A DNA stretch of 64,000 nucleotides from Trueperaceae bacterium (GTDB lineage: Bacteria > Deinococcota > Deinococci > Deinococcales > Trueperaceae). The stretch lies in contig OZ243927.1 of the NCBI GenBank assembly GCA_965213925.1, forward strand, positions 2,656,001 through 2,720,000. Reading direction: 5' to 3'. The translations under genes were made by a program, and so were the position numbers. Positions 12,973 to 56,149 of the stretch are shown one piece after another. Every line of letters begins with the position of its first letter. Positions within the stretch are counted from its first letter, which is position 1. The notes beneath the pieces were generated by a model. The model made no database searches, was not told the origin of the DNA, and saw only the letters and a program-made list of their open reading frames with translations.

Positions 12973-13004
12973 TTTTGCGTTTAACGCGCGCGTCTCTCGC
13001 AGAA
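12973..13004. repeat. 32-bp palindromic boundary site
   Basis: TTTTGCGTTTAAC GCGCGC GTCTCTCGCAGAA. Confidence 0.85.
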
Positions 13005-13114
13005 GAACGCTACACTTTCGAGCCTTTCCATTATTCCGCAGAGATCAAAGGAACCACAATCTATTGACCGTTCAGTACATATTGTCATAGAAGTTTACTG
13101 CACGAATAGGTCAT

Positions 13115-13153
13115 TCCTCCCAAATTTCTCCTCCCAAATTTCTCCTCCGAAAT
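13115..13153. repeat. 14-bp tandem repeat, about 2.8 copies
   Basis: TCCTCCCAAATTTC x2 + TCCTCCGAAAT. Confidence 0.8.
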
Positions 13154-13219
13154 CTGACGTGCGACAAGCGCTTATCTGTATTCTTACGGCTAAAGTTCTG
13201 AACGGACTCTTTCATCTCG

Positions 13220-13314
13220 TTATCGGGAAGCTCGAGCGCCACCCTCGTTTCGCGTTTGGTGTCGCTAAGAAGCGGTTCCAAATCCTTGAGTTCGGAGCCT
13301 GCCAAGACGCGCAT
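13220..13314 (-). pseudogene. Remnant of a TelA-associated substrate-binding/vWA protein gene
   Basis: MRVLAGSELKDLEPLL..KRETRVALEL recalls the N-terminus of SBP/vWA proteins encoded beside telA; no continuation. Confidence 0.45.
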
Positions 13315-13469
13315 GGTGTTTGTTTCCTATCCGCAGCTCGTTAAAAGTGATGTGAGCGCGAGAGTTAGAAAGAAGGCGTTGCACTGTATCTTCTGAAAGG
13401 ACAGGGAAAAGGGAGAGGCGGCAACGCTTTTTCTCCCTATCCCCCTTACCCTCATCTCTCTGTCAAACC

Positions 13470-14200
13470 TTAAAGCCTAAGTTCGTTATCCGCTGCGTTG
13501 TCTGGAACCTCGAGCGTCAAATCCGCTGTCGCCCCCGCCACCTGCTCATTGCGTACCCGGTCCAGATACGTCTTCGACTTGCCAATCTCCGCTTCGAGCG
13601 TGTCTACGGTTTGCTGCATCACGCCTAGAGCTGCCTGCTTGTATTCAGAAATCGCGTCCACCGCTGCGTAAACATTATTGAAAGCCTTCTGGAGTTGCTC
13701 GACATCCACGGTCGCTCCAGCCGCCTGCGTATGTACGCTCGAGGATTGCTTTCTCAAGAGCGCCGAGGTGGACGCGATGAGATTGCCTGTAGTCGCGTTA
13801 AGCGCGTCTATCTGGTCCAAGACGAGCTTCTGATTTGCCAGTCCCTGCGAGACCATGACCGCCGTGCGCAGCGCCGACACCGTCGTGGTCGAGGCGCGGT
13901 CCACACCCTTGATGAGTTCTAAGTTGTTCTTGCGGACCATGTCGAGCGCTAGATAGCCCTGAATAGAGACGGCGAGCTGCGTCTGTAAGTCCTGCACTTT
14001 CTGCCGCAAGTAAAAGAGCATCTCCTCTTCAACCACGCGGGCTTTTTCGGGCTCGGTGCGCTTGAGTTTGTCCGCACGTGCTAAGAGCGCTTCGTCCACT
14101 TTCCGCGCCAGATAGATATACGACTCCAACTTCTCCATCGCTTCCCACAAATTGACCTTCTCCTGCTCGATAGTCGCGTTGTCCTTGCGCAGCTCGTCTT
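13470..14200 (-). CDS. Toxic anion resistance protein (TelA family), 5'-truncated
   Basis: DELRKDNATIEQEK...RQKVQDLQTQLAVSIQGYLALDMVRKNNLELIKGVDRASTTTVSALRTAV; the N-terminus is lost at the junction. Confidence 0.85.
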
Positions 14201-15941
14201 GCTGCCGGTTAAAAGGGTGTATCGCCTACTCTACCGGCCTGACCTCTACCTGCGCGCCTACGCCAAGCTCTACAAGAACGAAGGCGCACTGACACCAGGT
14301 GCCTCGGACGAAACCGTGGACGGGATGTCCCTAGCGAAAATTGATACCATCATCGAGGCGCTACGCCAAGAGCGGTATCGGTGGACGCCGGTACGACGCC
14401 GTTACATTCCCAAAAAGAATGGCAAGATGCGGCCTCTAGGGATGCCTTCCTGGTCGGACAAACTTCTTCAAGAAGTTATCCGCTCCATCCTGGAAGCCTA
14501 TTATGAACCGCGGTTCAGCGACCGTTCTCACGGCTTTCGACCGAAACGGGGATGCCACACAGCTTTGCGCAAAGTCACCCAAGAGGGTCGAGGTACAAAG
14601 TGGTTTATCGAGGGAGATATCTGCTCGTGTTTCGACAAGATTAACTTCGATGTCTTGTTGAACATCTTGCAGAAGAGCTTCCACGACAACCGCTTCCTGC
14701 GGCTTATCAAGGGGCTGCTCGAAGCTGGCTACCTGGAGAACTGGACCTTTCACCAGACCTACAGCGGTGTGCCGCAAGGGTCGATTGTCGGTCCAATCCT
14801 CACCAACCTGGTTCTGGACAGGCTGGACAAGTTTGTCGAGCACGAACTGATACCAGCTTACACACGCGGCGAACGCCGCAAGACCTACCCCCCGTATGTC
14901 GCCATCGCCAAAGCCGCTCACGACGCTCGGAAAGCAGGGAACTGGGAGACCGCGCGGCAACTGAGCCAGCAGGCCCAGACAATGCCGTCGCGCGACCCCG
15001 ATGACCCGAACTTCCGGCGATTGTGGTACCAAAGGTATGCCGATGACTTTCTGCTGGGGCTGAAAGGGCCAAAAGACGAGGCCGTGGCTATCAAGCAAGA
15101 GATTGCCGCCTTCTTACGCGACGAACTCAAGCTTGAGCTTAGCGAGGATAAGACCCTGCTGACCCACGCGCGCACGCAGAAAGCGCGTTTCCTGGGCTAT
15201 GAGGTCCACATTCTTCACGCTGACGATAAACACGACCACCGGGGACAACGCTGCATCAACGGCAGCGTCGGACTCCGGGTACCGTCGCACGTCATGAAAG
15301 CGCACTGCGCCAAGTACATGCGACGCGGCAAGCCCATTCACCTCCCACAAAGGCTCAGCAGCGATGCTTACAGCATCGTCAGCCAATATCAAGCGGAATA
15401 CCGCGGGGTCGTGCAGTATTACCGCATGGCCTACAACCTCCACACGCTGGGCCGACTCAAGCGCGTCACAGAACTCTCGCTAGTGAAAACGCTGGCGAAT
15501 AAGTTCAGGACGAGTTGCCAGAAAATCTATCGGCGCTACCGCACCACCATCGACCTCAAGGAGGGCAGCTATAAAGTCCTTCAAGTCAAAGTGGACCGTG
15601 GTCCTAAAAAGAAGCCACTCATCACCCACTTTGGCGGCATCCCGTTACGGTGGAACAAATGGGTAGCCTTGGACGACAACCAGAACAGTAAGATTTGGAA
15701 CGGGCGTAATGAAGTGGTGGACCGCCTTTTAGCGCAAAGCTGTGAGCTTTGTGGGTCGGTGGAGCACGTCGAAGTGCATCACGTCCGAAAACTGGCAGAC
15801 CTTGAACAAAGAGGGCGTAAGTCACGGCCCGAATGGATGCAAAGGATGTCGGCTCGCCGACGCAAGACGCTGGTGGTCTGCCTCACCTGCCACCAAGACA
15901 TCCATAAAGGGCACTACCACGGGAAAGGACTTTCATGTTGA
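14199..15941 (+). CDS. Group II intron reverse transcriptase/maturase with C-terminal HNH endonuclease (N-terminus clipped)
   Basis: TPG..ETVDG, RPLGMP, SHGFRP, EGDI..CFD, GVPQGS, RYADDF, maturase X domain, CELCG..HHVRKL..CLTCHQDIH. Confidence 0.95.
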   Translation: MLPVKRVYRLLYRPDLYLRAYAKLYKNEGALTPGASDETVDGMSLAKIDTIIEALRQERYRWTPVRRRYIPKKNGKMRPLGMPSWSDKLLQEVIRSILEAYYEPRFSDRSHGFRPKRGCHTALRKVTQEGRGTKWFIEGDICSCFDKINFDVLLNILQKSFHDNRFLRLIKGLLEAGYLENWTFHQTYSGVPQGSIVGPILTNLVLDRLDKFVEHELIPAYTRGERRKTYPPYVAIAKAAHDARKAGNWETARQLSQQAQTMPSRDPDDPNFRRLWYQRYADDFLLGLKGPKDEAVAIKQEIAAFLRDELKLELSEDKTLLTHARTQKARFLGYEVHILHADDKHDHRGQRCINGSVGLRVPSHVMKAHCAKYMRRGKPIHLPQRLSSDAYSIVSQYQAEYRGVVQYYRMAYNLHTLGRLKRVTELSLVKTLANKFRTSCQKIYRRYRTTIDLKEGSYKVLQVKVDRGPKKKPLITHFGGIPLRWNKWVALDDNQNSKIWNGRNEVVDRLLAQSCELCGSVEHVEVHHVRKLADLEQRGRKSRPEWMQRMSARRRKTLVVCLTCHQDIHKGHYHGKGLSC

Positions 15942-16048
15942 GATTACTGGAGAGCCCCGTGACACGGAAAGCGGTCATGCGGGGTTCGGAGGGGGGATGT
16001 TGGAAAAGCGCTATCTTTGATAGGCAGCTCGCTGGCATCCTACCCTAC
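14201..16048 (+). mobile_element. Group II intron (inner), 5' domains missing
   Basis: RT ORF followed by DV (GAGCCCCGTGACACGGAAAGCGGTCATGCGGGGTTC) and DVI ending CCTACCCTAC. Confidence 0.9.
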
Positions 16049-16103
16049 CGCACGCACGGCTCTTAGGGGGGAGGAAGGCAGCGATGTCTTCTTCCTACCC
16101 GAC
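16049..16103 (+). mobile_element. 3' end of a second (outer) group II intron: 3' half of DV plus DVI
   Basis: CGCACGCACGGCTCTTAGGGGGG then hairpin GAGGAAGGCA-GCGA-TGTCTTCTTC and CTACCCGAC terminus. Confidence 0.8.
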
Positions 16104-16114
16104 CTGTTGCACAG
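16104..16114. repeat. Partial right arm of a boundary site, interrupted by the intron
   Basis: CTGTTGCACAG = positions 3-13 of the right-arm pattern; first 8 nt are the reverse complement of TGCAACAG in the 18061 site. Confidence 0.6.
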
Positions 16115-16176
16115 CGGCACATCGCTGAGCAACATATTTTATAGTGATTCGGATTACGTTCTCCTATACTCAGGTT

Positions 16177-17985
16177 ATGCCTCGCCTCATCGTCATCTCA
16201 TTTTTACTTTGTAGCTTTCTCGTGGGTTGCTCGAGCACCACGCCACTTTCACCACCAGGTGAAACGCCCCCTGTGACTGAGCCTAACCCAACTACCCCTA
16301 CCGAACCGACTTCACCTGAAACGCCCGCGCCCGAACCAACACCCACCACCCTTACGCCTGAAGAAGCTGACCGCATCGCCCTGACGCTCTGGCGCAACGA
16401 TGACCTCGGCAAACATCCCAAGGGCTCCTGCTCAGGCTGTCACGGCGCGGACTACTTTGATCTCGCCCGCATTGGCTCGGCGGATGAGGATATCGCTCGG
16501 CGAGCGGTGATCGACGGAGCGAGTCAACGAGAGGCGGACGCGCTTGTGCAAGCAGTCGGGCAGATGCGCCAAACGTACGGGCTAGTCGCAGACGACGCCC
16601 GCGCCTTTCGCCCCTTTCAACCGGGCGGCGAGGTGCTGCTGCCTAATCTTGACGACGCTGAGCACATCGTTTCGGTGGAGCGAGATATCGCTTTTGGTCA
16701 CCAGCTAGAAGCTCTCTTGCCAACCCTCTTCGGCGAACGTATCGCCTCACTAGCGGACGCAGAACGGGCGCGTGACGAACTCTTGGACCTCGCCCAAGGA
16801 GCTAACCAGGCGGGCGCGAACTCCCAGCGTATTCAACTTAGGGAGTTGCCTACCGGCATCACCTACCCACGCTGGTCAGCCGATCTGCACCACGGCGCAG
16901 ACGAGGGCACGCTCAACGATTGGCTTGCCGATGTCGCGCACGACGCCAAGCCGGAGCACCGCGAGGCGTGGTTGGGGCTGCAAGACGCCTACCTTGCAAC
17001 CCCTAGCGACGAGAACTTCTGGCGCATGTATCTCGCCGCTGAGGAGATGACCGCGACGCCCCTTTTCGGTGAGTGCACCATGACGGGGGGAAGGGCGCAT
17101 ATAGCCTGTGCGGACGTTAAGCGCTTTGCTCGAGAGAAATTCTTGAGCGCGTTGACGGGTCAGCACATGATGCGCTTAGAGGCGTCCGGGCGTGAGGGTT
17201 TTGCGGAGGGCGCACTAGCCTTTTCATACCTCGACACCGACCCCCGCTTCGACTTCATGAAGGAGCGTAAGAGCCGCACGCTTTTGCCCGCCAACCTCTG
17301 GGAAGTGGGCGACAAGGGGCGGAGCACCTTAGAAAATTCTCAGGCTGAGGGCAGTTTTCGCGAGAACTTAGCGAAGCTCGGCTATCCTGAGTTTGTGCAA
17401 GGCAGCATCGACCCCACACGCAGCGCGAGCCAGGAACAACATGAGTTACGCCTCGCCTGGTTCTGGTTAGGCTTCACCTTCGACCCCTCCTTTGCCCGTA
17501 TTCACAGCTCCAACGCCACCAAAGTGGGTGAGTATATGGTGGGAACGCTCCTCGATGAGCGGATGTTCATTCACAATACCTTTCACACCAACATGCGGCT
17601 GGTGACTAAGGGGTTTTTACCAGAAGCGAACAGAGAACAGGCAGGGCGCGAGCGCACTCTGGAACAGCTGCCCACCGTTTTTCGCATGAACTACGGTTAC
17701 TTTTGGGCTTACGGGCGCACGGTGCTCAATTGGCGGGAGAACAAAAAGCTTAACTTCGTTTACCCCGAAGACCTCAAAGCGGAGCAAGCCGACCTCTGGC
17801 ACCGCTTTACGGCGAACGGCTTTCGGATGAGCATGTTTCTTTACTTGGCGGCATTAGAAGAGGGCGCACCTAAAGACAGCGTTGCTTTTGACGCCCTAAC
17901 GACGCACTTTGAGACCTACGAACCTGAGCATCAAGAAGCAGACAATGCGCTGATGGCGCAGCTTAGGCGTAAGCTGGAGGAGTAG
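16177..17985 (+). CDS. Hypothetical lipoprotein with Pro/Thr linker and one CxxCH motif
   Basis: Lipobox LVGC, PT-rich tether, CSGCH; TATACT-N6-ATG leaderless start. Confidence 0.75.
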   Translation: MPRLIVISFLLCSFLVGCSSTTPLSPPGETPPVTEPNPTTPTEPTSPETPAPEPTPTTLTPEEADRIALTLWRNDDLGKHPKGSCSGCHGADYFDLARIGSADEDIARRAVIDGASQREADALVQAVGQMRQTYGLVADDARAFRPFQPGGEVLLPNLDDAEHIVSVERDIAFGHQLEALLPTLFGERIASLADAERARDELLDLAQGANQAGANSQRIQLRELPTGITYPRWSADLHHGADEGTLNDWLADVAHDAKPEHREAWLGLQDAYLATPSDENFWRMYLAAEEMTATPLFGECTMTGGRAHIACADVKRFAREKFLSALTGQHMMRLEASGREGFAEGALAFSYLDTDPRFDFMKERKSRTLLPANLWEVGDKGRSTLENSQAEGSFRENLAKLGYPEFVQGSIDPTRSASQEQHELRLAWFWLGFTFDPSFARIHSSNATKVGEYMVGTLLDERMFIHNTFHTNMRLVTKGFLPEANREQAGRERTLEQLPTVFRMNYGYFWAYGRTVLNWRENKKLNFVYPEDLKAEQADLWHRFTANGFRMSMFLYLAALEEGAPKDSVAFDALTTHFETYEPEHQEADNALMAQLRRKLEE

Positions 17986-18060
17986 CAAGCTGTCGTCGCC
18001 TTGCTCAGCGCTTTTAGCCTGACCTTTATACAACAAACTAGGTCGAAACTTGCGTAAGCG

Positions 18061-18092
18061 CAATGCAACAGACGCGCGCGTTCGTCGCAGAA
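18061..18092. repeat. 32-bp palindromic boundary site
   Basis: CAATGCAACAGAC GCGCGC GTTCGTCGCAGAA. Confidence 0.85.
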
Positions 18093-18227
18093 GCGCTGAA
18101 TCTGCTTCCACTTGTCTGTCAGCGTGTCTACAGTGTTCCCTTACGCCCCTCTGACATAGGCTTGCTAGGGTCACTTCAGCTACCGGTAGCTAGACTGACA
18201 CTCAATGACGCAGTGAGGAGAGGGTTT

Positions 18228-19859
18228 ATGCTACCTATAAAAGAGTTGTTATTCGCCAGCTTATTAGCGCTTACGGTTGGACAGGCACAAGAGACCGGAG
18301 GCGCTGAAACGGGCGGTGCCCAGGCATCAGGGCAGAGCGTTTCGGGCGTCGTCTACAACGATCTAAACGAGAACCGGCAGCGCGACGAAGGCGAAGCGGG
18401 GGTCGCAGGCGTGTCAGTCTCGAACGGGCTCGAGGTGGTGCAAACAGACGATAGCGGTCGCTATGAACTGTCCGCTCGTGACGAGATGATCATGTTCGTC
18501 ACCAAACCCGCTGGCTACATGGTCCCGGTGAACGAGGTGATGCTGCCGCAGTTCTACTACATCCACCAGCCTAACGGCACGCCCGAAGACTTAGACCTCG
18601 ACTTTGACGGCATCGAGCCGACAGGTCCGCTGCCTGACTCGGTAGACTTTCCGCTGCAAGCGTCCGAGCTGGATGAGTCGTTTGAGGCACTCGCCTTCGC
18701 CGACCCACAGCCCCGCGACGACACCGAACTCGACTACATCCGTGACGACGTAATTACGGAAATCGTTGGTACGGACGCCGCTTTCGGCATCACCGTCGGC
18801 GACATCATGTACGACGACCTGTCCCTGTTCGAGCGCTATAACGAAGTCGTTGCAGCGATCGGTATCCCCTTCTGGAACGTGCCGGGCAACCACGACCTGA
18901 ACTTCCAGTCCCCGGACGACGCTTACTCGCTCGAGACTTACAAGCGCATCTATGGACCCGCCTACTACTCGTTTGACTATGGGCAGGTGCACGTCGTGGT
19001 GATGGACAACGTCGAGTACTTCGGGGTGGAGGACGGCGAGTCGAGCGGCTACCGCGGCTACATCGGCGGAGCGCAGCTCTCTTGGCTCGAGAACGACCTG
19101 CGCTTCGTCCCGGAGGACAAGCTCATCGTCTTAGCCATGCACATCCCCCTGATCGACCAAGGGCGCGAAGACAGCGCCGGCGTCAACACCGCCGACCGCG
19201 AGGCGCTCTTCGAGGTCTTGGCGGGGCGCGAGCGGGTGCTCTCCATCTCGGGCCACGTCCACGCCAAGACCGAGCACAGTTACTTCGGCGAAGCAGACGG
19301 CTTTCAAGCGCCCAACCCGCTGCATCACATCACCCTGACGACCCTCTCGGGCGTCTGGTGGGGCGGGCCTGAGGACGAGCGCGGCATCCCCATCACCACC
19401 ACTCGTGACGGGCTGCCGAACGGTCATCACGTCCTCTCCTTTGAGGGCAACGCCTACCGCGAGCGGCTCAAGGGGGCGGGCGAAGCCGCCGACTATCAGA
19501 TGAACATCAGCGTCGCCCAGGCGCAGCAGGACGGCAACACCCTCGACCCCGCGCAGTGGTCCGGACCGCAAGTCGTCGCCAACGTCTTTAACGGCAGCGA
19601 GCTTTCCAGCGTCCGCTATCAGATCGACGGGAGCAAGATGCGGACGATGGAGCGCACCCTGCGCGGCGACCCCTACGTCAGCGAGCTGCAGGAGCGTTTC
19701 CCCGAGGAGATGCCCGGTCCTATCGACTCGTCGCACATCTGGACCGCACCCCTGCCGGACGACCTAGCGCCCGGCGTGCACCGGGTCCGCGTAGAAACGA
19801 CCGACCAGTACGCTCAGACCTTCCGGGCGACGCGCGTCTTCGAGGTCGCCGGGGAGTAG
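18228..19859 (+). CDS. Secreted calcineurin-like metallophosphoesterase
   Basis: Signal peptide, SdrD-like N-domain (SGVVYNDLNEN), ADPQ, GDIMYD, PGNHD, HIP, SGHVH. Confidence 0.88.
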   Translation: MLPIKELLFASLLALTVGQAQETGGAETGGAQASGQSVSGVVYNDLNENRQRDEGEAGVAGVSVSNGLEVVQTDDSGRYELSARDEMIMFVTKPAGYMVPVNEVMLPQFYYIHQPNGTPEDLDLDFDGIEPTGPLPDSVDFPLQASELDESFEALAFADPQPRDDTELDYIRDDVITEIVGTDAAFGITVGDIMYDDLSLFERYNEVVAAIGIPFWNVPGNHDLNFQSPDDAYSLETYKRIYGPAYYSFDYGQVHVVVMDNVEYFGVEDGESSGYRGYIGGAQLSWLENDLRFVPEDKLIVLAMHIPLIDQGREDSAGVNTADREALFEVLAGRERVLSISGHVHAKTEHSYFGEADGFQAPNPLHHITLTTLSGVWWGGPEDERGIPITTTRDGLPNGHHVLSFEGNAYRERLKGAGEAADYQMNISVAQAQQDGNTLDPAQWSGPQVVANVFNGSELSSVRYQIDGSKMRTMERTLRGDPYVSELQERFPEEMPGPIDSSHIWTAPLPDDLAPGVHRVRVETTDQYAQTFRATRVFEVAGE

Positions 19860-19891
19860 GGACAAACAGAGGCGTTCTGTCTGAATCAGGT

Positions 19892-19926
19892 GAACAGGAG
19901 CGGTCTACTATGAACCGCTCCTGTTC
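19892..19926 (+). terminator. 13-bp stem hairpin after the phosphoesterase gene
   Basis: GAACAGGAGCGGT-9 nt-ACCGCTCCTGTTC. Confidence 0.55.
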
Positions 19927-19976
19927 GCTCGGACTGAACATTTGTATAGAGGGGCACAGGAACGGAACCTATCTTT

Positions 19977-20008
19977 TTCTGCAACGAACGCGCGCGTTCG
20001 CCGCAGAA
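19977..20008. repeat. 32-bp palindromic boundary site
   Basis: TTCTGCAACGAAC GCGCGC GTTCGCCGCAGAA. Confidence 0.9.
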
Positions 20009-20076: not shown

Positions 20077-21471
20077 TCAAAGCGAAAAGAGTTGCCACCA
20101 GAACGCCCACGGCACGAACAGCATCGCCCCGCCCATCAAGAGGGCGAGCCAGACGCGCTCAACTCCCTGTACCGACTGCCGCCCCCGGTACCAGGTGGCT
20201 GTAAGTAGAACCGCCGTTAGCAAAAGTGCGAAAGCAAGAAGCTGGAGGAGGAACCAGCCGACTGGACGCCCTGCGATGACCGAGGTCACGCCTTCGCCGG
20301 ATGTCGCAGCGACATACCCCGTATAGGCGTACACGCCCCAAGGGGTGACTAGACCGAGCACAGTGAGAACCCAGGTACTCCACCTGCCTGGCATCCGCTG
20401 CGGCTTGGCGCGGCGAAGATACCTGACACCCGCTGCGACGAGGTACCCGCCAAAGACAAGCTGAAACAAGGCGAAGAAGGCGAGCTGCACCTGCCACCGG
20501 GCGAAGCCCTGCACATCCGTCACCGAAGGTCGGGTAGGGTGCCCGTCCGCTGGCGACGCGTCCAAGTGCGGTCCCGGTGGCGCGTCGGCGGTAACGTTCC
20601 GAAGCCATGAGGTCATCGTCTCGACGTAACCCGGGGCGAGCGCGCCGGTCACCTGGTCTTCAGCGACCGCGCTCGCGTCGTGGCTGGCGTCAGAAATAAA
20701 GCGCAGGACGTAGTGCCGATGACCTCCCCGCGCCAACGCTCGCCGCATAACACGGGCACTTTTGGCGGCAGGCATGACGCGATCCAGGGAACCCCAGAGG
20801 GCGAGGACAGGCTGACGGAGCTGCTCGAGAACGGGCGCGGGGTCGTATGTCCCTTCAGCAAAGAGCTCGGCCGAGATGAGGAAACGGTAGGTATGGTCCG
20901 CAAGAGCCCGCAGGCTCCCCTCTGAGGTGACGCCCTGCCGACGGAGCGCGCCCTCCGTCGCCCAAGCGCTCTGCTCTGCAGGCCCTACCCCCCCGCCTGC
21001 GACGGTGATCACGAACGCGATGTCGGTGGAGCGTGTGGCGGCTAGTGGCGCGACCCAGCCGCCTTCACTCAGACCCCACAAGCCGACCTGAGCGGGATTC
21101 ACCTCGTCACGCTGCTGCAGCATCTGCACGGCGGCGACAGCGTCGTCGGCTAGAAGAGAATACGAGCGGTCGCCTGCAGGGTTGGCGCTGTAGCCTTGGG
21201 TGCGCTTGTCGTAAAGCAGGGTGAGGAACCCCTCTCTTGCCAGGGCTTCAGCTACAGGGCGGTTCTCGTCACGCTTTCCAGGACCCGCCCCGTGAACGAG
21301 CACGACCGCCGGGACCCTGCCGCTCTGTTCGGGGATCAGCATTGTGCCGTGCAGCCTCACGTCACCGCTTTCGAAACTCAGCGCCTCTTCCGTCGCAGCC
21401 TGGGCGTGAGCGCCCGCCGCCGCAAGCCAGCAACTGAGGAGCAGCAACATCGTGAACACACAAAAGCGCAT
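20077..21471 (-). CDS. Exported alpha/beta hydrolase with C-terminal membrane helices
   Basis: VHGAG, YDKR, GLWGLSEGGW nucleophile motif, DASH; about four C-terminal TM segments. Confidence 0.85.
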   Translation of the reverse strand: MRFCVFTMLLLLSCWLAAAGAHAQAATEEALSFESGDVRLHGTMLIPEQSGRVPAVVLVHGAGPGKRDENRPVAEALAREGFLTLLYDKRTQGYSANPAGDRSYSLLADDAVAAVQMLQQRDEVNPAQVGLWGLSEGGWVAPLAATRSTDIAFVITVAGGGVGPAEQSAWATEGALRRQGVTSEGSLRALADHTYRFLISAELFAEGTYDPAPVLEQLRQPVLALWGSLDRVMPAAKSARVMRRALARGGHRHYVLRFISDASHDASAVAEDQVTGALAPGYVETMTSWLRNVTADAPPGPHLDASPADGHPTRPSVTDVQGFARWQVQLAFFALFQLVFGGYLVAAGVRYLRRAKPQRMPGRWSTWVLTVLGLVTPWGVYAYTGYVAATSGEGVTSVIAGRPVGWFLLQLLAFALLLTAVLLTATWYRGRQSVQGVERVWLALLMGGAMLFVPWAFWWQLFSL

Positions 21472-21662
21472 AAATTTAGCTGTCCCGATGACGACCCAAG
21501 CTTCGGTCGTTACGGCGTGAACCGTTCGAGGGCGAGGGTACAAAGACTGGTGAGTGCGTCATCATGCGACCTCATCCCTAGCGTAGCCCAGCAGCGCCAC
21601 AAACCGCATGTGCTTAAAGTCATGCACTCTCTACTATCTTGACGTCTAGCTGCTTTGCGGCG

Positions 21663-21694
21663 TTGTGCAAAAGACGCGCGCGTTCGTCGCACAA
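21663..21694. repeat. 32-bp palindromic boundary site
   Basis: TTGTGCAAAAGAC GCGCGC GTTCGTCGCACAA. Confidence 0.9.
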
Positions 21695-22467: not shown

Positions 22468-22499
22468 CTGTGCGGCAGACGCGCGCAACTCTTGCACAA
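22468..22499. repeat. 32-bp palindromic boundary site
   Basis: CTGTGCGGCAGAC GCGCGC AACTCTTGCACAA. Confidence 0.88.
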
Positions 22500-22532: not shown

Positions 22533-22985
22533 TCATTCCTTCGCCCGCTCAACAAGCGCTGCAATCCTCTCCTCGAAGCTGAAAGAGCCGAGCGGCTCGA
22601 CCTCGACTTGACGAAAGTCCGGATGGTCGGGGTTGAGAAGCACATTAAAGCTTTCAGGTGCGACCACTGAGGGAACGCGCAGAGCAACGCTTCTCGCTTC
22701 GCGCACCCAGGTGTCACCGTAGGACCGCGTCTGAACTCGGTCATTGATCCCGAGGTCGTCAGGCGCATTCTCGAGAAGAGTCTCATCGAAGGTACAGCGG
22801 TAAAGGTTATAACCCTGTAGGCTGGCGTAGACCTCCCAACCGGCTAGAATCTCTAGTGCAGCTAGAGCAGCGTGCTCCGCTGTATACACCATAACCGTGC
22901 CCTCGCTATTCCAACGCCCTGGTGCGCCGCGTGGTCTGAACGCCGCACTCAAACTGTTCGTAAAAGCTAAGCGGTAGACCTTCAA
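22533..22985 (-). CDS. RES-domain toxin (NAD+ phosphorylase family)
   Basis: VYR..GRWNSEG..VYTAEH..ALE..LRVPSVV..NVLLNPDHPDF. Confidence 0.92.
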   Translation of the reverse strand: MKVYRLAFTNSLSAAFRPRGAPGRWNSEGTVMVYTAEHAALAALEILAGWEVYASLQGYNLYRCTFDETLLENAPDDLGINDRVQTRSYGDTWVREARSVALRVPSVVAPESFNVLLNPDHPDFRQVEVEPLGSFSFEERIAALVERAKE

Positions 22986-23425
22986 AGAAAAGTGCCGTCC
23001 TCCAGCGCGGTAAGCATGTTTTGAAGCTTGCTGACCCCGACGCGCGTAGCCAGCAAGTCGATAGGTCTAGCTCCGTCTAGGGCAGCCTTAGGGCTCCCGA
23101 ACCAAGCTTTCGCCCCCTCCTGTCCGAGAATGCTCGCGACCCGTGCAAACAGGGTAAGCGCACTGTAGGTACGGTCTAAAAGCTCGACGCTCATATCTGG
23201 GTTCTTACTCTTGCGCGAGCGGCTGATGCCGAGCACAGCGAGTGCTTCGGTTTTGCTGATATCAAGCAGGGAAGTCAAACGTCTTAGAACCTGCTCGAGG
23301 GAGGACTCGCCAACGACAGTTTGCTTGAGCACGGCCTCAGCTACCTCGTTCGGCGTAGTGTCGAGTACCTGTTCAAACAGTGCCTCGCGGGTAGAAGCAA
23401 AGGAAGTCTGTATCACGTTCAACAT
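22982..23425 (-). CDS. Xre/MbcA/ParS-type antitoxin
   Basis: AKAWFGSPKAALDGARPIDLLATRVG..LEDG; overlaps RES start; start codon uncertain. Confidence 0.88.
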   Translation of the reverse strand: MLNVIQTSFASTREALFEQVLDTTPNEVAEAVLKQTVVGESSLEQVLRRLTSLLDISKTEALAVLGISRSRKSKNPDMSVELLDRTYSALTLFARVASILGQEGAKAWFGSPKAALDGARPIDLLATRVGVSKLQNMLTALEDGTFL

Positions 23426-23452
23426 AGTAGCATGAAACTTCAACGTTTAGCG

Positions 23453-23484
23453 CTCTGCAGGAGTTGCGCGCAACCGCCGCAGAA
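23453..23484. repeat. 32-bp palindromic boundary site
   Basis: CTCTGCAGGAGTT GCGCGC AACCGCCGCAGAA. Confidence 0.88.
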
Positions 23485-25104: not shown

Positions 25105-25136
25105 TTGTGCAACGAACGCGCGCGTTCGCCGCCTAA
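25105..25136. repeat. 32-bp palindromic boundary site
   Basis: TTGTGCAACGAAC GCGCGC GTTCGCCGCCTAA. Confidence 0.88.
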
Positions 25137-25313
25137 AACTTGGGTCACCCTCGGTCCGTAGTTCAACCTAAAACCTCTTGCCGAAATGGACGTCAAGGAG
25201 AGTTCGGAGGGCGGCGCAGATTATTTGCCGCGCGGAGAAAAGAAGCGGCGTCACAGGGTGTAAGCCCAAAGAACATAGGAGCATTCACAGCCTTGAACGC
25301 TTGCACTGTCGGT

Positions 25314-26481: not shown

Positions 26482-26498
26482 TTCTGCAACGAACGCGC
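26482..26498. repeat. Half boundary site
   Basis: TTCTGCAACGAAC GCGC, identical to the left arm of the 19977 site, then unrelated sequence. Confidence 0.75.
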
Positions 26499-27869: not shown

Positions 27870-28277
27870 CAAATTCGCTTTATCGCGCTGTCCATGCACG
27901 AAAAGCCCGAGTACGTTCAGGGCTTTTTAGAAGCGGGCGGGTCAGGCTACGTGCCTAAAAGTGCCGTCGAGACGCAGCTTTTAGATGCGATCGCTGCCGT
28001 ATCACGGGGTGAATACTACGCGCCTGCCAAGCTCCTAGCCGACCTCGCCAAGGAGATGGCGGGACTCGATCCCTACCGCAACGTAAAACTCACCCACAGA
28101 GAGCTAGAGGTCGTCGAGCACATTGCGCACGGGCGAACCCATAAGGAGATCGCCTCGGTTATCGGCATCAGCGAGAAGACGGTCGCGACCTACCGCGAGC
28201 GGGCGGCGGAGAAGCTGGGCTTAAAAACGCGAGCTGAACTCGTGAGGTGGGCGTTAGAGCAGAACATGCTGAGCTGA
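27870..28277 (+). CDS. NarL/LuxR response regulator, C-terminal part
   Basis: IALSMHE..GYVPK receiver end; LTHRELEV..KEIA..ISEKTVATYR HTH; N-terminus lost at the junction. Confidence 0.85.
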   Translation, partial: QIRFIALSMHEKPEYVQGFLEAGGSGYVPKSAVETQLLDAIAAVSRGEYYAPAKLLADLAKEMAGLDPYRNVKLTHRELEVVEHIAHGRTHKEIASVIGISEKTVATYRERAAEKLGLKTRAELVRWALEQNMLS

Positions 28278-28935: not shown

Positions 28936-29093
28936 ATACGGATTCCGTTTAATTCCCTATCACCGAGGCTTTTTCTCGGTGATAGTCCATACACTCCATC
29001 CGTTTCGCGGAGGCGAAAACTACGTAAATCCTTATTCCTATTCGCTACACTCAGATTGATTCGCTATGTTAGCGAATCAATCGGAATCCGTAT
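28936..29093. repeat. 158-bp MITE-like element (Deinococcus small-repeat type)
   Basis: Terminal 12-bp IR ATACGGATTCCG...CGGAATCCGTAT; internal hairpins CTATCACCGAG/CTCGGTGATAG and GATTGATTCGCTA/TAGCGAATCAATC. Confidence 0.75.
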
Positions 29094-30037: not shown

Positions 30038-30069
30038 TTCTGTGCGAGTTGCGCGCGTTCGCTGCACAG
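30038..30069. repeat. 32-bp palindromic boundary site
   Basis: TTCTGTGCGAGTT GCGCGC GTTCGCTGCACAG. Confidence 0.88.
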
Positions 30070-30074
30070 CAGTG

Positions 30075-30503
30075 CTACGCGTTAGGCGGGTGCCAGCCCA
30101 CCTCAATCCAGAGCCGCCTCGCTTGCACCAGGGCCTCACGGTTGAGCGTTAAGGCTTCAACTGTTGCCCTGCCGCTCGCTGTCTTACCCGCAATATTCAG
30201 CCCTGTCTCCACCCACTCGAAGTGCTCACGCCATACTTGTTGGCGCGGATGATAGAGCGGGACGAGCTGAGCTGTGTTCGGGTCGGTCGCGGCGACCCGC
30301 TGCCCCTTAGCGAGGTTGCAGTCCCAGCAGGCGAGGCAGAGGTTCGCGGTATCGCTGCTGCCTCCGAGAACCTCTGGGATGATGTGATCCACCATAAAGC
30401 GCATCCCTGCTACCGCTTCCTGGGTTTGACAATAGGCGCAGCGGAAGTTGAAATGCGCCGCCACTTCGCGACGTAGAGCGAGGGATAGCTTGGTTTTCGA
30501 CAC
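30075..30503 (-). CDS. HNH endonuclease
   Basis: CAYCQ..DHIIP..GG..NLCLAC..CN..K, LYHPR..W..HF. Confidence 0.92.
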   Translation of the reverse strand: MSKTKLSLALRREVAAHFNFRCAYCQTQEAVAGMRFMVDHIIPEVLGGSSDTANLCLACWDCNLAKGQRVAATDPNTAQLVPLYHPRQQVWREHFEWVETGLNIAGKTASGRATVEALTLNREALVQARRLWIEVGWHPPNA

Positions 30504-30512
30504 CTATTGAGG

Positions 30513-30908
30513 TTAAGAAGAGGTGAGCAGGCTGTCGACCTCGTGCCCCCGGCGCTTAAGTAGCGCTGCCGCTTCAGCCCGCAAGCGCATCACCTGTTGG
30601 GCGTAGCGCTGTAAGCGCAGCGCTTCGGTAGCTTCCTCGGGCGTGAGACCTTCGCGCTGCCGCCGTTCGACGAGCGCCTGCATCCGTTCGCTCTGCTCGT
30701 CTGCGACACGCTGCTTGGCAACTTGCCACAGTTGAGCGTCGTCTAAAACAGTGAGTTGCTCGAGCTGAACGTCGTTGGGCGTCTCGACCGCGAGCGCTGC
30801 TTCGAGGAGGGCGCGCGCTTCCTCCTCCAAAGAGCGGGCATGGGCGGTTGCGCGCGCTTCTAAAGCAACTTGCGCGTCGGGCGAGAGTTGGAGTTCGAGG
30901 GCGTCCAC
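30513..30908 (-). CDS. Small helical protein, putative antitoxin partner of HNH
   Basis: N-terminal Arc/FitA-like segment (ALEARATAHARSLEEEARALL); 9 bp from HNH gene; TAAACT-N6-GTG start. Confidence 0.7.
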   Translation of the reverse strand: MDALELQLSPDAQVALEARATAHARSLEEEARALLEAALAVETPNDVQLEQLTVLDDAQLWQVAKQRVADEQSERMQALVERRQREGLTPEEATEALRLQRYAQQVMRLRAEAAALLKRRGHEVDSLLTSS

Positions 30909-30952: not shown

Positions 30953-30984
30953 TTCTGCGCGAGTTGCGCGCGTCTCACGCACAA
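30953..30984. repeat. 32-bp palindromic boundary site
   Basis: TTCTGCGCGAGTT GCGCGC GTCTCACGCACAA. Confidence 0.9.
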
Positions 30985-34247: not shown

Positions 34248-34279
34248 TTCTGCAACTGACGCGCGCGACTGCCGCACAA
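34248..34279. repeat. 32-bp palindromic boundary site
   Basis: TTCTGCAACTGAC GCGCGC GACTGCCGCACAA. Confidence 0.9.
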
Positions 34280-36107: not shown

Positions 36108-36139
36108 TTCTGCTCCTAAAGCGCGCAACTCGCACCGAA
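36108..36139. repeat. 32-bp palindromic boundary site (diverged)
   Basis: TTCTGCTCCTAAA GCGCGC AACTCGCACCGAA. Confidence 0.75.
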
Positions 36140-36782: not shown

Positions 36783-36814
36783 ATCTGCAATTAACGCATG
36801 CGTCAGCTGCCAAA
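36783..36814. repeat. 32-bp boundary site with variant palindromic core
   Basis: ATCTGCAATTAAC GCATGC GTCAGCTGCCAAA. Confidence 0.75.
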
Positions 36815-36912: not shown

Positions 36913-37887
36913 ATGAAAGCGGTGGTGTACACAGACTACGGACCCCCCGAAGTGCTCCGGCTCGAGGAGGTAGAAAAACCCGCCCCTAAAGACGACGAAG
37001 TTCTGGTCAAGGTTCACGCGGCGGCTGCGAATCCGCTCGACTGGCACTTCATGAGGGGTACGCCGCTCCCGTTCCGCCTTGTTTTTGGATTCCGCAGACC
37101 GAAGAACACGTTTCTCGGGGCGGACATCGCGGGGCACGTCGAAGCGGTTGGCAGCGGGGCGACACAGTTTCAGCCCGGTGATGAGGTGTTCGGTGACGTG
37201 AGCGGCAGCGGGTTGGGCGGCTTTGCCGAGTACGTCTGTGCCCGCGAAGAGACCTTAGCCCTGAAGCCGAGTACCTTATCCTTTGAAGAGGCGGCGGCGG
37301 TCCCAGTGGCAGCTATCACCGCGCTACAGGGGCTTCGCGACAAGGGACAGATTCGGTCCGGGCAGCAGGTGCTGGTCAACGGCGCCTCGGGCGGGGTGGG
37401 CACCTTTGTGGTGCAGCTCGCCAAACATTTCGGGGCCGAGGTCACCGGCGTGTGCAGCACGCGGAATCTGGAGCTGGTGCGCTCCATCGGGGCGGACAGA
37501 GTAGTCGACTACACGAGAGAGGACTTCACCAAAAGCGGGCAGCCGTACGACCTGATCCTCGACGCGGTGGGGAACTGTTCGGTCTCGGACTACGAGCGTG
37601 CCTTAGGTCCCCAAGGAAGATGTGTCATCGTCGGCTTTACCACCCTAACTCATCTGCTCCAGGTTGCCTTGTTGGGGGCGTGGGTATCTAGGAGGGGGCG
37701 GAAGAAGATCGGTGTTATGGGAGCGGCGAAACCGAACCAGACGGACCTGGTTTTCATCAAAGAACTTCTCGAGGTCGGCAAAGTCGCCCCCGTCATAGAC
37801 AGGACCTACCCGTTAAGTGAGACGGCTGAAGCTATCAGATATCTCGAAAAAGGGCACGCTCGGGGAAAAGTTGTCATCGACATCTGA
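36913..37887 (+). CDS. NAD(P)-dependent alcohol dehydrogenase / quinone reductase (MDR)
   Basis: YGPPEVL, NPLDW, NGASGGVG, GHARGKVVI. Confidence 0.92.
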   Translation: MKAVVYTDYGPPEVLRLEEVEKPAPKDDEVLVKVHAAAANPLDWHFMRGTPLPFRLVFGFRRPKNTFLGADIAGHVEAVGSGATQFQPGDEVFGDVSGSGLGGFAEYVCAREETLALKPSTLSFEEAAAVPVAAITALQGLRDKGQIRSGQQVLVNGASGGVGTFVVQLAKHFGAEVTGVCSTRNLELVRSIGADRVVDYTREDFTKSGQPYDLILDAVGNCSVSDYERALGPQGRCVIVGFTTLTHLLQVALLGAWVSRRGRKKIGVMGAAKPNQTDLVFIKELLEVGKVAPVIDRTYPLSETAEAIRYLEKGHARGKVVIDI

Positions 37888-37915: not shown

Positions 37916-37947
37916 TTGTGCGTGAGACGCGCGCGTTAGTTGCGCAA
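37916..37947. repeat. 32-bp palindromic boundary site
   Basis: TTGTGCGTGAGAC GCGCGC GTTAGTTGCGCAA. Confidence 0.9.
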
Positions 37948-45375: not shown

Positions 45376-45377
45376 AG

Positions 45378-48336: not shown

Positions 48337-48368
48337 TTGTGCAATTAACGCGCGCAACTGGCGCACAA
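48337..48368. repeat. 32-bp palindromic boundary site
   Basis: TTGTGCAATTAAC GCGCGC AACTGGCGCACAA. Confidence 0.9.
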
Positions 48369-53291: not shown

Positions 53292-53607
53292 GGACTTCGC
53301 CTGACCACCGTCATACCGCAACCTATGGGGTAGCTTCCTGAGAGTATTTGTAGTTGCCGCACCTTGTAAAAGTAGCGTGAGTAGATGAGCATCCCTATTG
53401 ATTACTCAAGAAATGATGCTCTTTTGCTTAATATGCTTGGAGCGATCTCGCTGTGCAAGTCTTTAGACTCTACTACTTTATGTCGCTGCGTCGCTACGGT
53501 ATTACTTTGTCTAAAGAGAGGCAGCCTAGTTGTTTGAGTCATGCACGCAGCGCCCCTGTAACAAAATGTTGGGTAGTGCGGCGAACCGAGCCTATCGTGG
53601 CATAACT

Positions 53608-53637
53608 TTTGTGGAGTGACGCGTGTCTCTCGCAGAA
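53608..53637. repeat. Degenerate boundary site (4-nt core)
   Basis: TTTGTGGAGTGAC GCGT GTCTCTCGCAGAA; right arm identical to that of the 12973 site. Confidence 0.7.
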
Positions 53638-53720: not shown

Positions 53721-55028
53721 ATGCTCACGGATGAGATCACTTTCGCCCCCGCCGCCACCCTCGCTAGGGCGATAAGGCTTAAAGACCTCTCCTCCGTAGA
53801 GGTGGTCGAGGTCTACCTCAAGCGAACCGAGGTGGTGAACCCTAGCCTCAACGCCGTCGTGCAGCTCGCCGCGGAAGCCGCCCTGAGCGACGCGCGGCTG
53901 GCCGACGAAGCCCTCGCGCGAGGAGATACGACCGGCCCTTTGCACGGCGTCCCTTTCACCGTTAAAGACTGGCTCGAGACGAAGGGAGTGGTATGCACCG
54001 CGGGCGAAGAGAGGCACCGAAGGTACGTTCCGAAGCATGACGCCACCGCCGTGGCGCGGCTGCGCGAGGCCGGCGGCATCTTCCTCGGCAAGACCAACAT
54101 TACCGTCAACAACCCCGTCTACGGGCGCACCAATAACCCCTACAACCTGGCGTACACGCCAGCGGGTAGCAGCAGCGGCGAGGCGGCTATCATCGCGGCG
54201 GGCGGCTCACCTTTGGGGTTGGGCAGCGACTCGGGCGGGAGCATCCGCCAGCCCGCTCACAACTGCGGCATCGCCGGGTTCAAGCCGAGCACGGGCAGGG
54301 TCCCCCTCACAGGGCACCTGCCGCGCATCAACCCCATGAGCGACCCCCGCACGACGATTGGACCGATGGCGCGCTACGTAGAAGACCTGGCGCTCGCGCT
54401 GCCCGTCATCAGCGGCGTGGACTGGCAGGACGCCAGCGTCGTTCCCGTGCCGCTCGGCCACTGGCAGGACGTCGGGGTAGAGCGCCTGCGCGTGGCCTTC
54501 TACACGAGACACGAGCACGCCGAGCCGACCCCGGAGACGGACGAGGTGGTGAGAAGGGCGGCGCGAGCCCTCGCCCGGCTCGAGGTCGAGGAGGCGCGGC
54601 CCGAGCGGGTCGAGGAAGCGTACGCGATCACCCGCGCCTATTGGCAGCGGCCCGAGTCGGAATCGTGGGACGCGTGGGCGCCCGACGGTGAGGCGAAGCT
54701 GAGCGGCGAGGAGGTCGAGCGACACCTGTTCGAGTGGGACCGGTTCCGGCGCAGCCTTATCCGCTTCATGGCGCACTACGACGTCATCTTGACGCCTGTC
54801 GCCGAAAAACCTGCCGTGCCCCATGGCGAGTCGGAAGGCGGCATCCCCTACACACTGCCCTACAGCCTCACGGGCTACCCCTGCGCGGTGGTGCGCGGCG
54901 GCAGCTCGCCCGAGGGGCTGCCGATCGGGGTGCAGGTCGTGGCGAGGCCGTGGCGCGATGACGTGGCGCTCGCGGTCGCGCACTATCTCGAGCAGGCTCT
55001 GGGGGGATACCGAAAGCCTGCGATCTAG
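53721..55028 (+). CDS. Amidase-signature family enzyme
   Basis: GPLHGVPFTVKD, GSSSGE, GSDSGGSIR, GLPIGVQ. Confidence 0.92.
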   Translation: MLTDEITFAPAATLARAIRLKDLSSVEVVEVYLKRTEVVNPSLNAVVQLAAEAALSDARLADEALARGDTTGPLHGVPFTVKDWLETKGVVCTAGEERHRRYVPKHDATAVARLREAGGIFLGKTNITVNNPVYGRTNNPYNLAYTPAGSSSGEAAIIAAGGSPLGLGSDSGGSIRQPAHNCGIAGFKPSTGRVPLTGHLPRINPMSDPRTTIGPMARYVEDLALALPVISGVDWQDASVVPVPLGHWQDVGVERLRVAFYTRHEHAEPTPETDEVVRRAARALARLEVEEARPERVEEAYAITRAYWQRPESESWDAWAPDGEAKLSGEEVERHLFEWDRFRRSLIRFMAHYDVILTPVAEKPAVPHGESEGGIPYTLPYSLTGYPCAVVRGGSSPEGLPIGVQVVARPWRDDVALAVAHYLEQALGGYRKPAI

Positions 55029-55135
55029 AGGCGCGCTTGTTACGCCCACGCCCTGGGCTATCGGTCTTGTCATCACTTTACTTACCTACGTACCAGGACG
55101 ATTGCGCGCCTGACCGGGTCGTCGCTGCTTAAGCG

Positions 55136-55167
55136 GTGTGCGAGAGACGCGCGCGTCTCTCGCATTG
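55136..55167. repeat. 32-bp palindromic boundary site (perfect 26-bp palindrome)
   Basis: GTGTGCGAGAGAC GCGCGC GTCTCTCGCATTG. Confidence 0.9.
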
Positions 55168-55260
55168 CGCTTTAACACCCCTTGAGCTATCTTCCGGTTG
55201 GCATAGCAATAAGTGGGCAATTATGCTATCAACTATGGTATAATTGCCAAGAGGTGCAAG

Positions 55261-55653
55261 ATGACCGTTCAACAGTTGGTTCAAAGCAACAGCACGGAGC
55301 GCATTGCAGCAGTTCGCGAAGGGCTCTCCTTCGAGAGCTTCGTCACGTTGCGTGAAGCCTTAGGCGTGAGTACGGATGAGCTCGCTCAGCTTTTGGGCAT
55401 CCCCCGTCGCACGCTGACCAAGCGGCAGAGCGAGGGTGTCTTTAAGCTCGCTGAGAGCAACGCCATCAGCCGGGTTGCTCGTGTGTACAAAGAAGCGCTC
55501 GACTTTTTCGATGACGAGGTGGATACCCTAAGGTGGCTTAAGACACCCTTGCCTGCGCTCGGCGGAACGCCTCTGGACCTGCTCGATACCGACCCCGGCG
55601 CAGATGCGGTGAGCACGCTACTGGCTCAACTCGCCTGGGGCATCTATCCTTGA
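55261..55653 (+). CDS. Xre/MbcA/ParS-type antitoxin
   Basis: HTH (LAQLLGIPRRTL), ES..SRVARV, WLKTPLPALGGTPLDLLDT..G. Confidence 0.92.
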   Translation: MTVQQLVQSNSTERIAAVREGLSFESFVTLREALGVSTDELAQLLGIPRRTLTKRQSEGVFKLAESNAISRVARVYKEALDFFDDEVDTLRWLKTPLPALGGTPLDLLDTDPGADAVSTLLAQLAWGIYP

Positions 55654-56105
55654 TCGTCGCTTGGCGGCTCACGCATGAGCGCTTCAAAGATCAGGCAACG
55701 AGTGGTAACGGCGGGCTGTTCGCACCAGGGCGCTGGCACAGCCAAGGAAGATATATTGTGTATAGCTCGAGCAGCTTGGCGCTTGCCACACTCGAGCTGT
55801 TCGTGAATTTGCAGAACAGGCGGCAGCTCGCTCACTATGTCAAGAGCCAAATAGAGATTCCTGAAGCGCTTACCGAAATCCTAGAAGAGGCTGCTCTAAG
55901 GACGTTTTTAAGGGCTCCTGACCAGTTTGATAGCCGCAGCTACGGCGACTCGTGGTTCGCTGGGGAGCGAAGCTGCGTACTCCGGGTTCCGAGTCGGGTG
56001 GTACCGCAGGAATGGAATTACCTCATTAACCCATTGCACGCAGACTTCGAGAAGATCACCGCCTCGACCAACCTATACGAGGTGGATGAGCGCCTCTTGC
56101 CATAA
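55650..56105 (+). CDS. RES-domain toxin
   Basis: WR..GRWHSQG..VYSSSSLALATLE..LRVPSRVVP.E.NYLINPLH. Confidence 0.92.
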   Translation: MIVAWRLTHERFKDQATSGNGGLFAPGRWHSQGRYIVYSSSSLALATLELFVNLQNRRQLAHYVKSQIEIPEALTEILEEAALRTFLRAPDQFDSRSYGDSWFAGERSCVLRVPSRVVPQEWNYLINPLHADFEKITASTNLYEVDERLLP

Positions 56106-56119
56106 AGCAGTAATCAGAG

Positions 56120-56149
56120 TTGTGCACCGAACGCGCGTTAGCTGCATAA
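56120..56149. repeat. Boundary site with 4-nt core
   Basis: TTGTGCACCGAAC GCGC GTTAGCTGCATAA. Confidence 0.8.

Follow-up and report, generated by a model that had tools for sequence, protein, structure and literature searches.

A 32-bp element as the probable recombination site of a gene-cassette system in Trueperaceae, with relatives in Bacillota

The DNA stretch analysed here (the window) comprises 64,000 nucleotides, positions 2,656,001 to 2,720,000 of contig OZ243927.1, from the genome of a Trueperaceae bacterium (assembly GCA_965213925.1, Deinococcota). Between positions 12,973 and 56,149 it contains hydrolases, toxin-antitoxin pairs, a dehydrogenase, a sugar-utilisation locus, an amidase and parts of a group II intron, separated by copies of a 32-bp element in which two 13-bp arms flank a 6-bp core (Table 1). 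A preliminary description, made from the letters of the window, had proposed that these genes are cassettes moved by a recombinase acting on the elements. This proposal was followed up in the source genome (G000; 4.75 Mb, 96.9% complete, contigs C1–C6), in two congeners (G001 and G002) and in more distant relatives.

The sites and their cargo

All 19 positions listed for the motif in the preliminary description were found to hold what was described there. The 14 copies called complete are full 32-bp sites, and the copy at 36,783 was also found to be full, with the core GCATGC, which gives 15 full sites in the window (17–43 bits). The motif itself is real, but the consensus quoted for it was loose: two copies match it exactly and 15 within six mismatches. 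As stated, no tyrosine recombinase gene was found in the window. The earlier feature list missed an intron reverse transcriptase gene (14,199–15,941) and three polar companion sites. The flank from 1 to 13 kb, taken for a housekeeping stretch, does not bear this out, since only its first 0.7–0.85 kb matched the two congeners at E ≤ 1e-40.

A weight matrix built from the window copies gave 89 matches at 15 bits or more in G000, 87 on C1 and two on C6, compared with one match in each of two local shuffles of C1. Besides those on C6, the sites lie in clusters on C1 at 211–294, 801–897, 2669–2711 (the window), 2896–2913, 3197–3233, 3399–3490 and 4518–4523 kb and are not spread evenly through core intergenic regions. 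These counts and the tight clustering exclude chance. The layout is a fixed 13-6-13, the core is GCGCGC in 73 of the 81 sites scoring at least 20, and a single consensus is common to both arms. The intergenic placement noted for the window holds genome-wide: 81 of the 83 sites scoring at least 18 lie outside genes (own gene caller; 84% of C1 is coding), and one of the two exceptions is an over-extended gene start. The element had also been called a palindrome. The 13-6-13 dyad stands; a selected hairpin does not, since the two arms of one site were complementary at 7.92 of 13 positions compared with 7.80 of 13 for random arms of the family (172 sites, p = 0.16). Thus the element is a dyad of binding sites, and a hairpin or terminator role was rejected. 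Two arm classes linked to the head and the tail of genes were looked for and not found (AC at 89/132 heads and 132/208 tails), and a possible likeness of the outer arm to the Deinococcus radiation-response motif, which would suit an operator, was set aside on spacing and distribution. Viral contigs gave no match to a stricter symmetric pattern, so that carriage by phages is not supported, and a metagenome scan gave six loci, none of them carrying a second site.

Neighbouring sites in G000 enclose 72 intervals of 12 kb or less, with a median of 3.1 kb, and 52 of them contain one to three genes. In a Pfam scan that covered 43 proteins of the window and, outside it, 110 of 114 proteins from modules of up to 4.7 kb, Xre-RES pairs were found twice in the window and three times elsewhere; other cargo included PIN and HNH pairs, GGDEF/EAL proteins, dehydrogenases, hydrolases, efflux pumps and MarR/TetR regulators. 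Several arrays sit between tRNA genes and long integrases and may therefore nucleate in genomic islands. One module (L136:15770–17824 and 17946–19280), also present in G001 and G002, encodes a GGDEF-terpene synthase fusion and a cytochrome P450.

Breakpoints, orientation and an intron at the sites

Eight units of the window matched G001 or G002 at 80–98%, with their ends at sites and at unrelated locations. The amidase and Xre-RES modules, which are neighbours in the window, lie 370 kb apart in G001, and the dehydrogenase and amidase modules, 16 kb apart in the window, adjoin in G002. The flanks of 172 sites were compared, 83 from G000 and 89 from relatives, the latter taken from regions of G001 and G002 picked for holding sites and from four other loci, not from whole genomes. 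In 54 pairs of sites one 150-bp flank was shared at 78% identity or more, and in all 54 the other flank differed. Identity was 0.76–0.94 in the shared flank, remained above the level of random pairs through the inner arm and equalled that level from position 20, the first base after the core. In a control, a homologue was found in G000 for 68 of 398 ordinary junction halves, and the outer flank was kept in 51 of the 68; by the same lenient measure it was kept in none of the 54 site pairs (Fisher p = 6e-20, the pairs not being independent). Gene order is thus not conserved across the sites, and identity is lost right after the GCGCGC core, where the preliminary description had predicted the breakpoint. 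Within G000 the HNH pair and the dehydrogenase module were found as site-to-site duplicates (100% and 99.7% identity), which points to recent copying. These comparisons show that accessory modules move as units, each keeping its own two inner arms, with the exchange placed at the 6-bp core. An unplaced 15.9-kb contig (C6) has sites of its own and 89–93% copies of C1 modules; it may represent a co-assembled strain.

Junctions at sites in G000 were of all types: 39 tandem, 29 convergent and 13 divergent. Among the 52 pairs with consistent gene calls (two of the 54 were dropped), 25 switched between a head and a tail partner, and 19 of 38 end clusters joined partners of both types. Modules were thus shown by comparison to join head or tail at random, in agreement with the earlier suggestion that a self-complementary core allows either orientation. 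Contigs of four public sequencing runs were also inspected; where the sides of a joint measured 20–31 bases, they were taken to match other sites and the joint was disregarded. In a contig of run X2 the phosphoesterase and dehydrogenase modules are joined head to head on opposite strands, an arrangement that the window does not have. The small contigs C2–C6 showed no closure at a site.

The intron reverse transcriptase gene has four near-identical copies in G000, every one of them in a site cluster, and was not found in four relatives. It belongs to an intron of 2436 nt that is inserted in domain 5 of an outer intron of 831 nt lacking an open reading frame (ORF), so that the two form a twintron; Rfam matches to domains 5 and 6 (D5/D6) belong to the inner intron. 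The inner introns are 99–100% identical among the copies, and domain 6 of the outer intron differs. In all four copies the 3′ end of the outer intron adjoins position 22 of a site, and in the two copies with an intact 5′ end it comes after one arm, the core and two bases. From these two copies the outer intron was seen to have a GUGYG 5′ end, D5/D6, an AY 3′ end and exon-binding sites (EBS1 and EBS2) complementary to the 5′ exon. The sole ACGCGC hexamer (EBS1) of this intron lies in a predicted stem-loop and is complementary to the final six bases of the exon; a second segment, EBS2, matches the site arm. A group II intron thus recognises the site by base pairing. In the window copy the 5′ part of the intron has been lost, and so has the start of telA, which breaks off where it adjoins the intron remnant; within 13,031–16,104 the telA piece joins the reverse transcriptase intron at a short shared sequence, as if by an 8.4-kb deletion in a copy of the 3474–3486 kb region.

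At a distance of 35–36 bp from main sites, and directed away from them, polar dyads of the GG(G/C)CCG type were found in G000, G001, G002 and G149. The window has three, found with a matrix that is noisy near its threshold (18 shuffle matches). These companions may be accessory binding sites or relics of an ancestral polar system.

Among other features of the window, the protein of about 600 amino acids (aa) at 16,144–17,985 has a probable lipoprotein signal and a CxxCH motif, and is also present in G001 and G002. A TreT-like glycosyltransferase (26,908–27,899, minus strand) is apparently in two frames, part of 27,876–28,286 has an 88% copy at C1:233332–233742, and two other short repeat families (11,402–11,510 and 28,930–29,090), with many copies in G001 and G002, are unrelated to the sites.

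Table 1. Sites, modules and intron parts in the window, and twintron copies in the source genome
Feature	Position	Strand	Remarks
Full site, left end of TelA module	12973..13004		Homology to G002:C2:1291192-1292397 begins at 12983
3′ part of TelA gene	13470..14201	-	PF05816 positions 127-332; identical piece C1:3484507-3485677
5′-truncated group II intron with reverse transcriptase/maturase/HNH, inner intron of twintron	14202..16048	+	
3′ half of domain 5 and domain 6 of outer ORF-less group II intron	16049..16103	+	
Site positions 22-32 (last 11 bp), site split by intron	16104..16114		Homologous module in G002 starts at intact site C8:39265
Module: ~600-aa protein, no Pfam match	16144..17985	+	86% to G002:C8:39283-41269, ends at sites
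Decayed polar companion site	18026..18057	-	35 bp from main site
Full site	18061..18092		X2 contig links 18071 to 36811, opposite strands
Module: metallophosphoesterase	18064..20008	+	95% to G001:C4:1524513-1526457, both ends at sites
Full site	19977..20008		
Module: alpha/beta hydrolase	20077-21543	-	Precedes site 21663
Full site	21663..21694		Contig pieces of runs X1 and X2 stop at 21696
Full site	22468..22499		
Module: Xre-RES toxin-antitoxin pair	22533..23443	-	98% to G002:C8:735590-736606, site to site
Full site	23453..23484		
Module: GH5	23658-25082	+	Precedes site 25105
Full site	25105..25136		
Weak polar companion site	25140..25171	+	35 bp offset; 15.8 bits, close to noise
Half-site remnant, left arm and 4 core bases	26482..26498		11.8 bits as half-site; no module end found there
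Full site	30038..30069		
Module: RHH protein and HNH nuclease (toxin-antitoxin-like pair)	30075..30908	-	30036-30971 100% to C1:211322-212257, also site-bounded
Full site	30953..30984		
Full site, after TetR and hydrolase module	34248..34279		
Full, partly decayed site, start of DUF421 module	36108..36139		
Module: DUF421	36159-36680	-	80% to G001:C4:160840-161417 from site; paralogous module C1:3412847-3413507
Full site, core GCATGC	36783..36814		
Module: zinc dehydrogenase	36913..37887	+	99.7% copy C1:2898714-2899847; 93% on C6; 92% in G002
Full site, left end of 10.4-kb sugar-utilisation module	37916..37947		
Full site	48337..48368		
Polar companion site, core GGCTCG	53574..53605	-	29.8 bits
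Decayed site, right arm intact	53608..53637		Amidase module homology begins at 53621
Module: amidase	53721..55028	+	96% to G001:C4:32918-34468, 94% to G002:C8:104448-105983, site to site
Full site	55136..55167		
Module: Xre-RES toxin-antitoxin pair	55213..56105	+	87% to G001:C4:406871-407870
Site with 2-bp core deletion (30 bp), right end of array	56120..56149		
Twintron copies	window 14202-16103; G000:C1 290593-293225, 3429459-3432725, 3474247-3477513		

The candidate recombinase and its relatives in Bacillota

The preliminary description had suggested listing the tyrosine recombinases of the genome. Ten PF00589 matches were found in G000; two lie inside site-bounded modules (C1:883694–885386 and C1:3228844–3233293), and the 3.5-kb loci of the other eight contained no site. 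The two genes are paralogues, 88% alike, and each starts within about 100 bp after a site and is followed by a toxin-antitoxin pair; in the orthologue loci too, the gene starts a fixed short distance past a site. An Xer-like recombinase gene is thus itself carried in a site-bounded module. The protein (296 aa) scores over the PF00589 cut-off and has the motif residues R144, K168, H243, R246, H269 and Y278, whose catalytic roles were assigned by likeness to XerD, the closest match in the PDB (E = 5e-33). Its scores are below the cut-offs for XerC (204.8 against 335.15 bits), XerD (195.9 against 329.6), XerS (95 against 267), XerA_Arch (192.4 against 220) and the integron integrase IntI (TIGR02249; 111.8 against 265, with only residues 199–280 matching), and no XerH model matched it at 1e-20. 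A single-sequence AlphaFold model had a mean confidence (pLDDT) of 38.9 and was not used. Upstream of the recombinase start, a hairpin over the ribosome-binding site (L002:2320–2410, minus strand) is conserved before the Trueperaceae orthologues; its folding z-score is only -1.67, and it may limit translation.

Among 128 genomes of the family, a full-length orthologue was found in seven (G000, G001, G002, G005, G072, G149 and G151) and a 49% fragment in an eighth (G092); the copy in G001 (C4:389675–390562) is free of internal stops. The strict site pattern was found in nine, with 53, 38, 24, 9, 8, 3, 2, 1 and 1 copies; these include six of the seven genomes with a full-length orthologue, compared with three of the 121 others. 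In 24 genomes from four other families of the same order no copy of the pattern was found. The nearest homologous loci carry the family title Trueperaceae. One consensus for both arms fits one protein, and a dedicated, single Xer-like enzyme encoded outside the window would act on the sites. The recombinase-driven cassette array of the preliminary description is thus supported, with a candidate gene elsewhere in the genome and a predicted action on the sites. The G092 locus (L158, on C74) combines the recombinase fragment with Bacillota-like GCGCCC sites, perhaps an independent acquisition.

Homologues with 40–59% identity were found in Alicyclobacillus, Sulfobacillus and Bacillaceae. The sites arrayed in their loci share the 13-6-13 layout and have related arms, but their cores are asymmetric, most often GGGTGC (20 of 100), GGGCAG (18) and GGGGGC (18). 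Since a loose regular expression was too noisy for these sites, they were counted with a matrix seeded by eye from the same loci, which gave 0–0.2 sites per shuffled locus. In each of the 16 loci examined the asymmetric sites all point one way, as do 137 of the 168 genes that flank them. In several cases homology between Bacillota loci also stops at the sites. In Bacillaceae (L043, L054, L067, L069 and L101) sites are often paired 41–65 bp apart, often with unlike cores; these pairs are possibly empty modules or a counterpart of the 35-bp companion. Symmetry may have arisen a second time in the Gottfriedia locus (L101), where polar sites occur together with sites that have the self-complementary core GCATGC.

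In the order of G153, the Bacillales, the polar pattern was present in 43 of 81 genomes, including 15 of the 16 that carry the gene (E ≤ 1e-60) and 28 of the 65 that do not, and many of the gene copies were broken. In a sample from across Bacillota it was present in six of 301 genomes, one of them the centre genome, and is therefore not phylum-wide. Homologues were also found on 21 plasmid records, mostly from Bacillus.

A tree of the homologues (midpoint root, very long outgroup branch, rows shorter than 235 aa excluded) placed the short-form enzymes of about 280 aa in one clade of 27 rows (support 96/89), the only clade with local 13-6-13 arrays. Within it the Trueperaceae proteins are sister to the Alicyclobacillus/Sulfobacillus group (support 95/88). 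Long-form homologues of about 330 aa, from Paenibacillus and Bacteroidota, had no local arrays; one Paenibacillus genome with such a homologue has 31 sites elsewhere. Polar sites with the core GGGCCG or GGGCAG lie beside the early-branching Trueperaceae copies (G151 and G072), suggesting a derived origin of the symmetric core. From this tree, whose root is weak, we infer that the system came from Bacillota, the symmetric core arising later within Trueperaceae.

Interpretation and comparison with known systems

These results support the reading of the 32-bp element as the recombination site of a gene-cassette system, to which we give a probability of about 0.85. By the chemistry of tyrosine recombinases, one recombinase subunit would bind each 13-bp arm, and two double-stranded sites would pair in a homotetramer and exchange strands across the 6-bp core. 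As GCGCGC is self-complementary, any two sites could pair either way. Recombination of neighbouring sites would excise a module as a circle or invert it, and the circle could integrate at any other site, either way round; a site would be added every time, so that arrays would grow. Toxin-antitoxin modules would limit the loss of modules and thereby stabilise the arrays. In Bacillota the asymmetric cores would force one-way arrays.

Several observations weigh against this reading. Neither an excised circle nor an inversion within one strain was seen in the four public runs, which consisted of contigs. The contrast in tandem junctions is modest (61/95 compared with 39/81 in G000, p = 0.034), and the Bacillota counts are partly circular because the matrix was seeded from those loci. 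Codon 4 of one recombinase copy in G000 is a stop, and in the other copy the residue before the second catalytic histidine is an unusual D instead of G. Sites are present without a recombinase gene in G071 (eight sites) and G034 (three sites) and in 28 Bacillales genomes at the E ≤ 1e-60 threshold; conversely, in G151, which has a 70% orthologue, the sites are polar apart from one weak symmetric site, and none shows the strict pattern. Finally, in 25 close pairs inner-arm positions 7–13 diverge more (0.72–0.92) than the flank (0.97), and nearly the whole outer arm is common to two of these pairs, so that some arm exchange or conversion is left unaccounted for by strict exchange at the core.

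The genomes with sites and no gene, together with the possible impairment of both G000 copies, would be explained if a different enzyme acted on the sites, either an Xer-like protein of the host or an integrase from an island, with the candidate family (P0001) as a passenger or as one of two partners; other integrases indeed lie 8–40 kb from several arrays. We consider this improbable, since one arm consensus fits one protein, the sites were not found in 119 of the 128 family genomes, the gene lies at a fixed short distance after a site in the orthologue loci, and site architecture tracks the enzyme clade across two phyla. Still less probable, at odds of a few in a hundred, is that the intergenic dyad is an operator or nucleoid-protein site whose copies serve as passive breakpoints for short-repeat recombination: 29 of the 81 junctions are convergent and have no promoter for an operator to control, identity falls at one position right after the core where only 6 bp of perfect homology exist, and the pattern was not found in the 24 genomes of the other four families. 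A repetitive extragenic palindromic (REP) or miniature inverted-repeat transposable element (MITE)-like repeat, or a terminator-like hairpin inserting between genes, is also short, palindromic, intergenic and multi-copy, but is already largely refuted and hardly credible, as no PF01797 (Y1/RAYT) match was found in G000 compared with six of 14 control genomes, the arms do not co-vary, no pair of 54 had both flanks in common and the copies are clustered in islands.

Beyond the recombination site itself, the cassette reading can be extended, with odds only somewhat better than even, to a third, unpublished family of cassette systems beside integrons and dif modules. This family would have a self-packaged Xer-like recombinase and 13-6-13 double-stranded sites, would be common in Bacillales, and would have been transferred to Trueperaceae, where a switch to a self-complementary core freed orientation and the site became the target of a group II intron. 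Bacteria have two well-known routes, integrons and dif modules, by which accessory genes are stockpiled and reshuffled through site-specific recombination, and integrons are reported to be scarce in Bacillota. If true, a third system that is common in Bacillales, occurs on Bacillus plasmids and crosses phyla would explain variable regions that annotation ignores. The sites give a direct means to delimit modules in genomes, polar and symmetric cores offer a natural experiment on spacer symmetry and array architecture, and the small enzyme and its site could be turned into a tool for recombination that does not depend on Cre or Flp. A literature search found no description of the site or of the enzyme family, although subscription papers and supplements were largely outside it and a prior description is possible. 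The cassette-recombination system, with its candidate enzyme, is real and well supported, apparently unpublished, and outside any described family.

Cre/loxP and Flp/FRT also have 13-bp inverted arms, a homotetramer and a spacer whose asymmetry sets direction; in both, the asymmetric spacer measures 8 bp and a single replicon is resolved or inverted, whereas the sites described here are a natural symmetric-spacer variant that builds arrays. Tn4430 encodes its tyrosine recombinase TnpI beside its own site, IRS, which has accessory motifs beside the core. These motifs resemble the companion site at 35 bp; TnpI was compared by description only. In Tn6022, an XerC-like enzyme lies beside a dif-like site and needs the host XerD (PMC11014353). 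Both transposons have one site each and no multi-module arrays.

XerS/difSL, XerH/difH and XerA are similar in that one recombinase is encoded next to a site of about 30 bp, but as described in PMC5357621 they resolve chromosome dimers at one dedicated site, compared with about 90 sites in accessory islands in G000. In addition, the recombinase scores below the XerS and XerA cut-offs, and its gene is present in only seven of 128 family genomes.

Acinetobacter dif modules, as described in PMC6449649, are units of 0.8–3 kb bounded by short dyads that have a 6-bp centre; they too carry adaptive and toxin-antitoxin cargo, and one module is found in different contexts. The pdif sites of that account measure 28 bp, their XerC and XerD arms are unlike, their centre varies, and the host XerC/XerD act on them. 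By contrast, the sites described here measure 32 bp, their two arms are alike and the self-complementary core is fixed; they come with a single candidate recombinase of their own and form large chromosomal arrays.

With integrons, among them sedentary chromosomal integrons and attC clusters that lack an integrase, the system shares cassette arrays of shuffled order, toxin-antitoxin cassettes, arrays without a nearby recombinase and site-associated group II introns, the last reported for integron sites (PMC7923331). The intron described here differs from group IIC-attC introns: its target is not attC, and its outer intron lacks an ORF and has an EBS2 match. A specific insertion is present in integron integrases (PMC8138268), and the recombinase found here falls well short of the IntI cut-off. 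Fixed site length and the lack of arm co-variation give no indication of a folded single-strand attC. Unlike co-oriented integron cassettes, the modules lie in either orientation and often contain operons with regulators. An integron has a single attI entry site with the promoter Pc beside its integrase gene; here the recombinase gene is itself part of a module, with an ordinary site on each side. The system works like dif modules and integrons, yet it lacks some of the features by which each of the two is defined.

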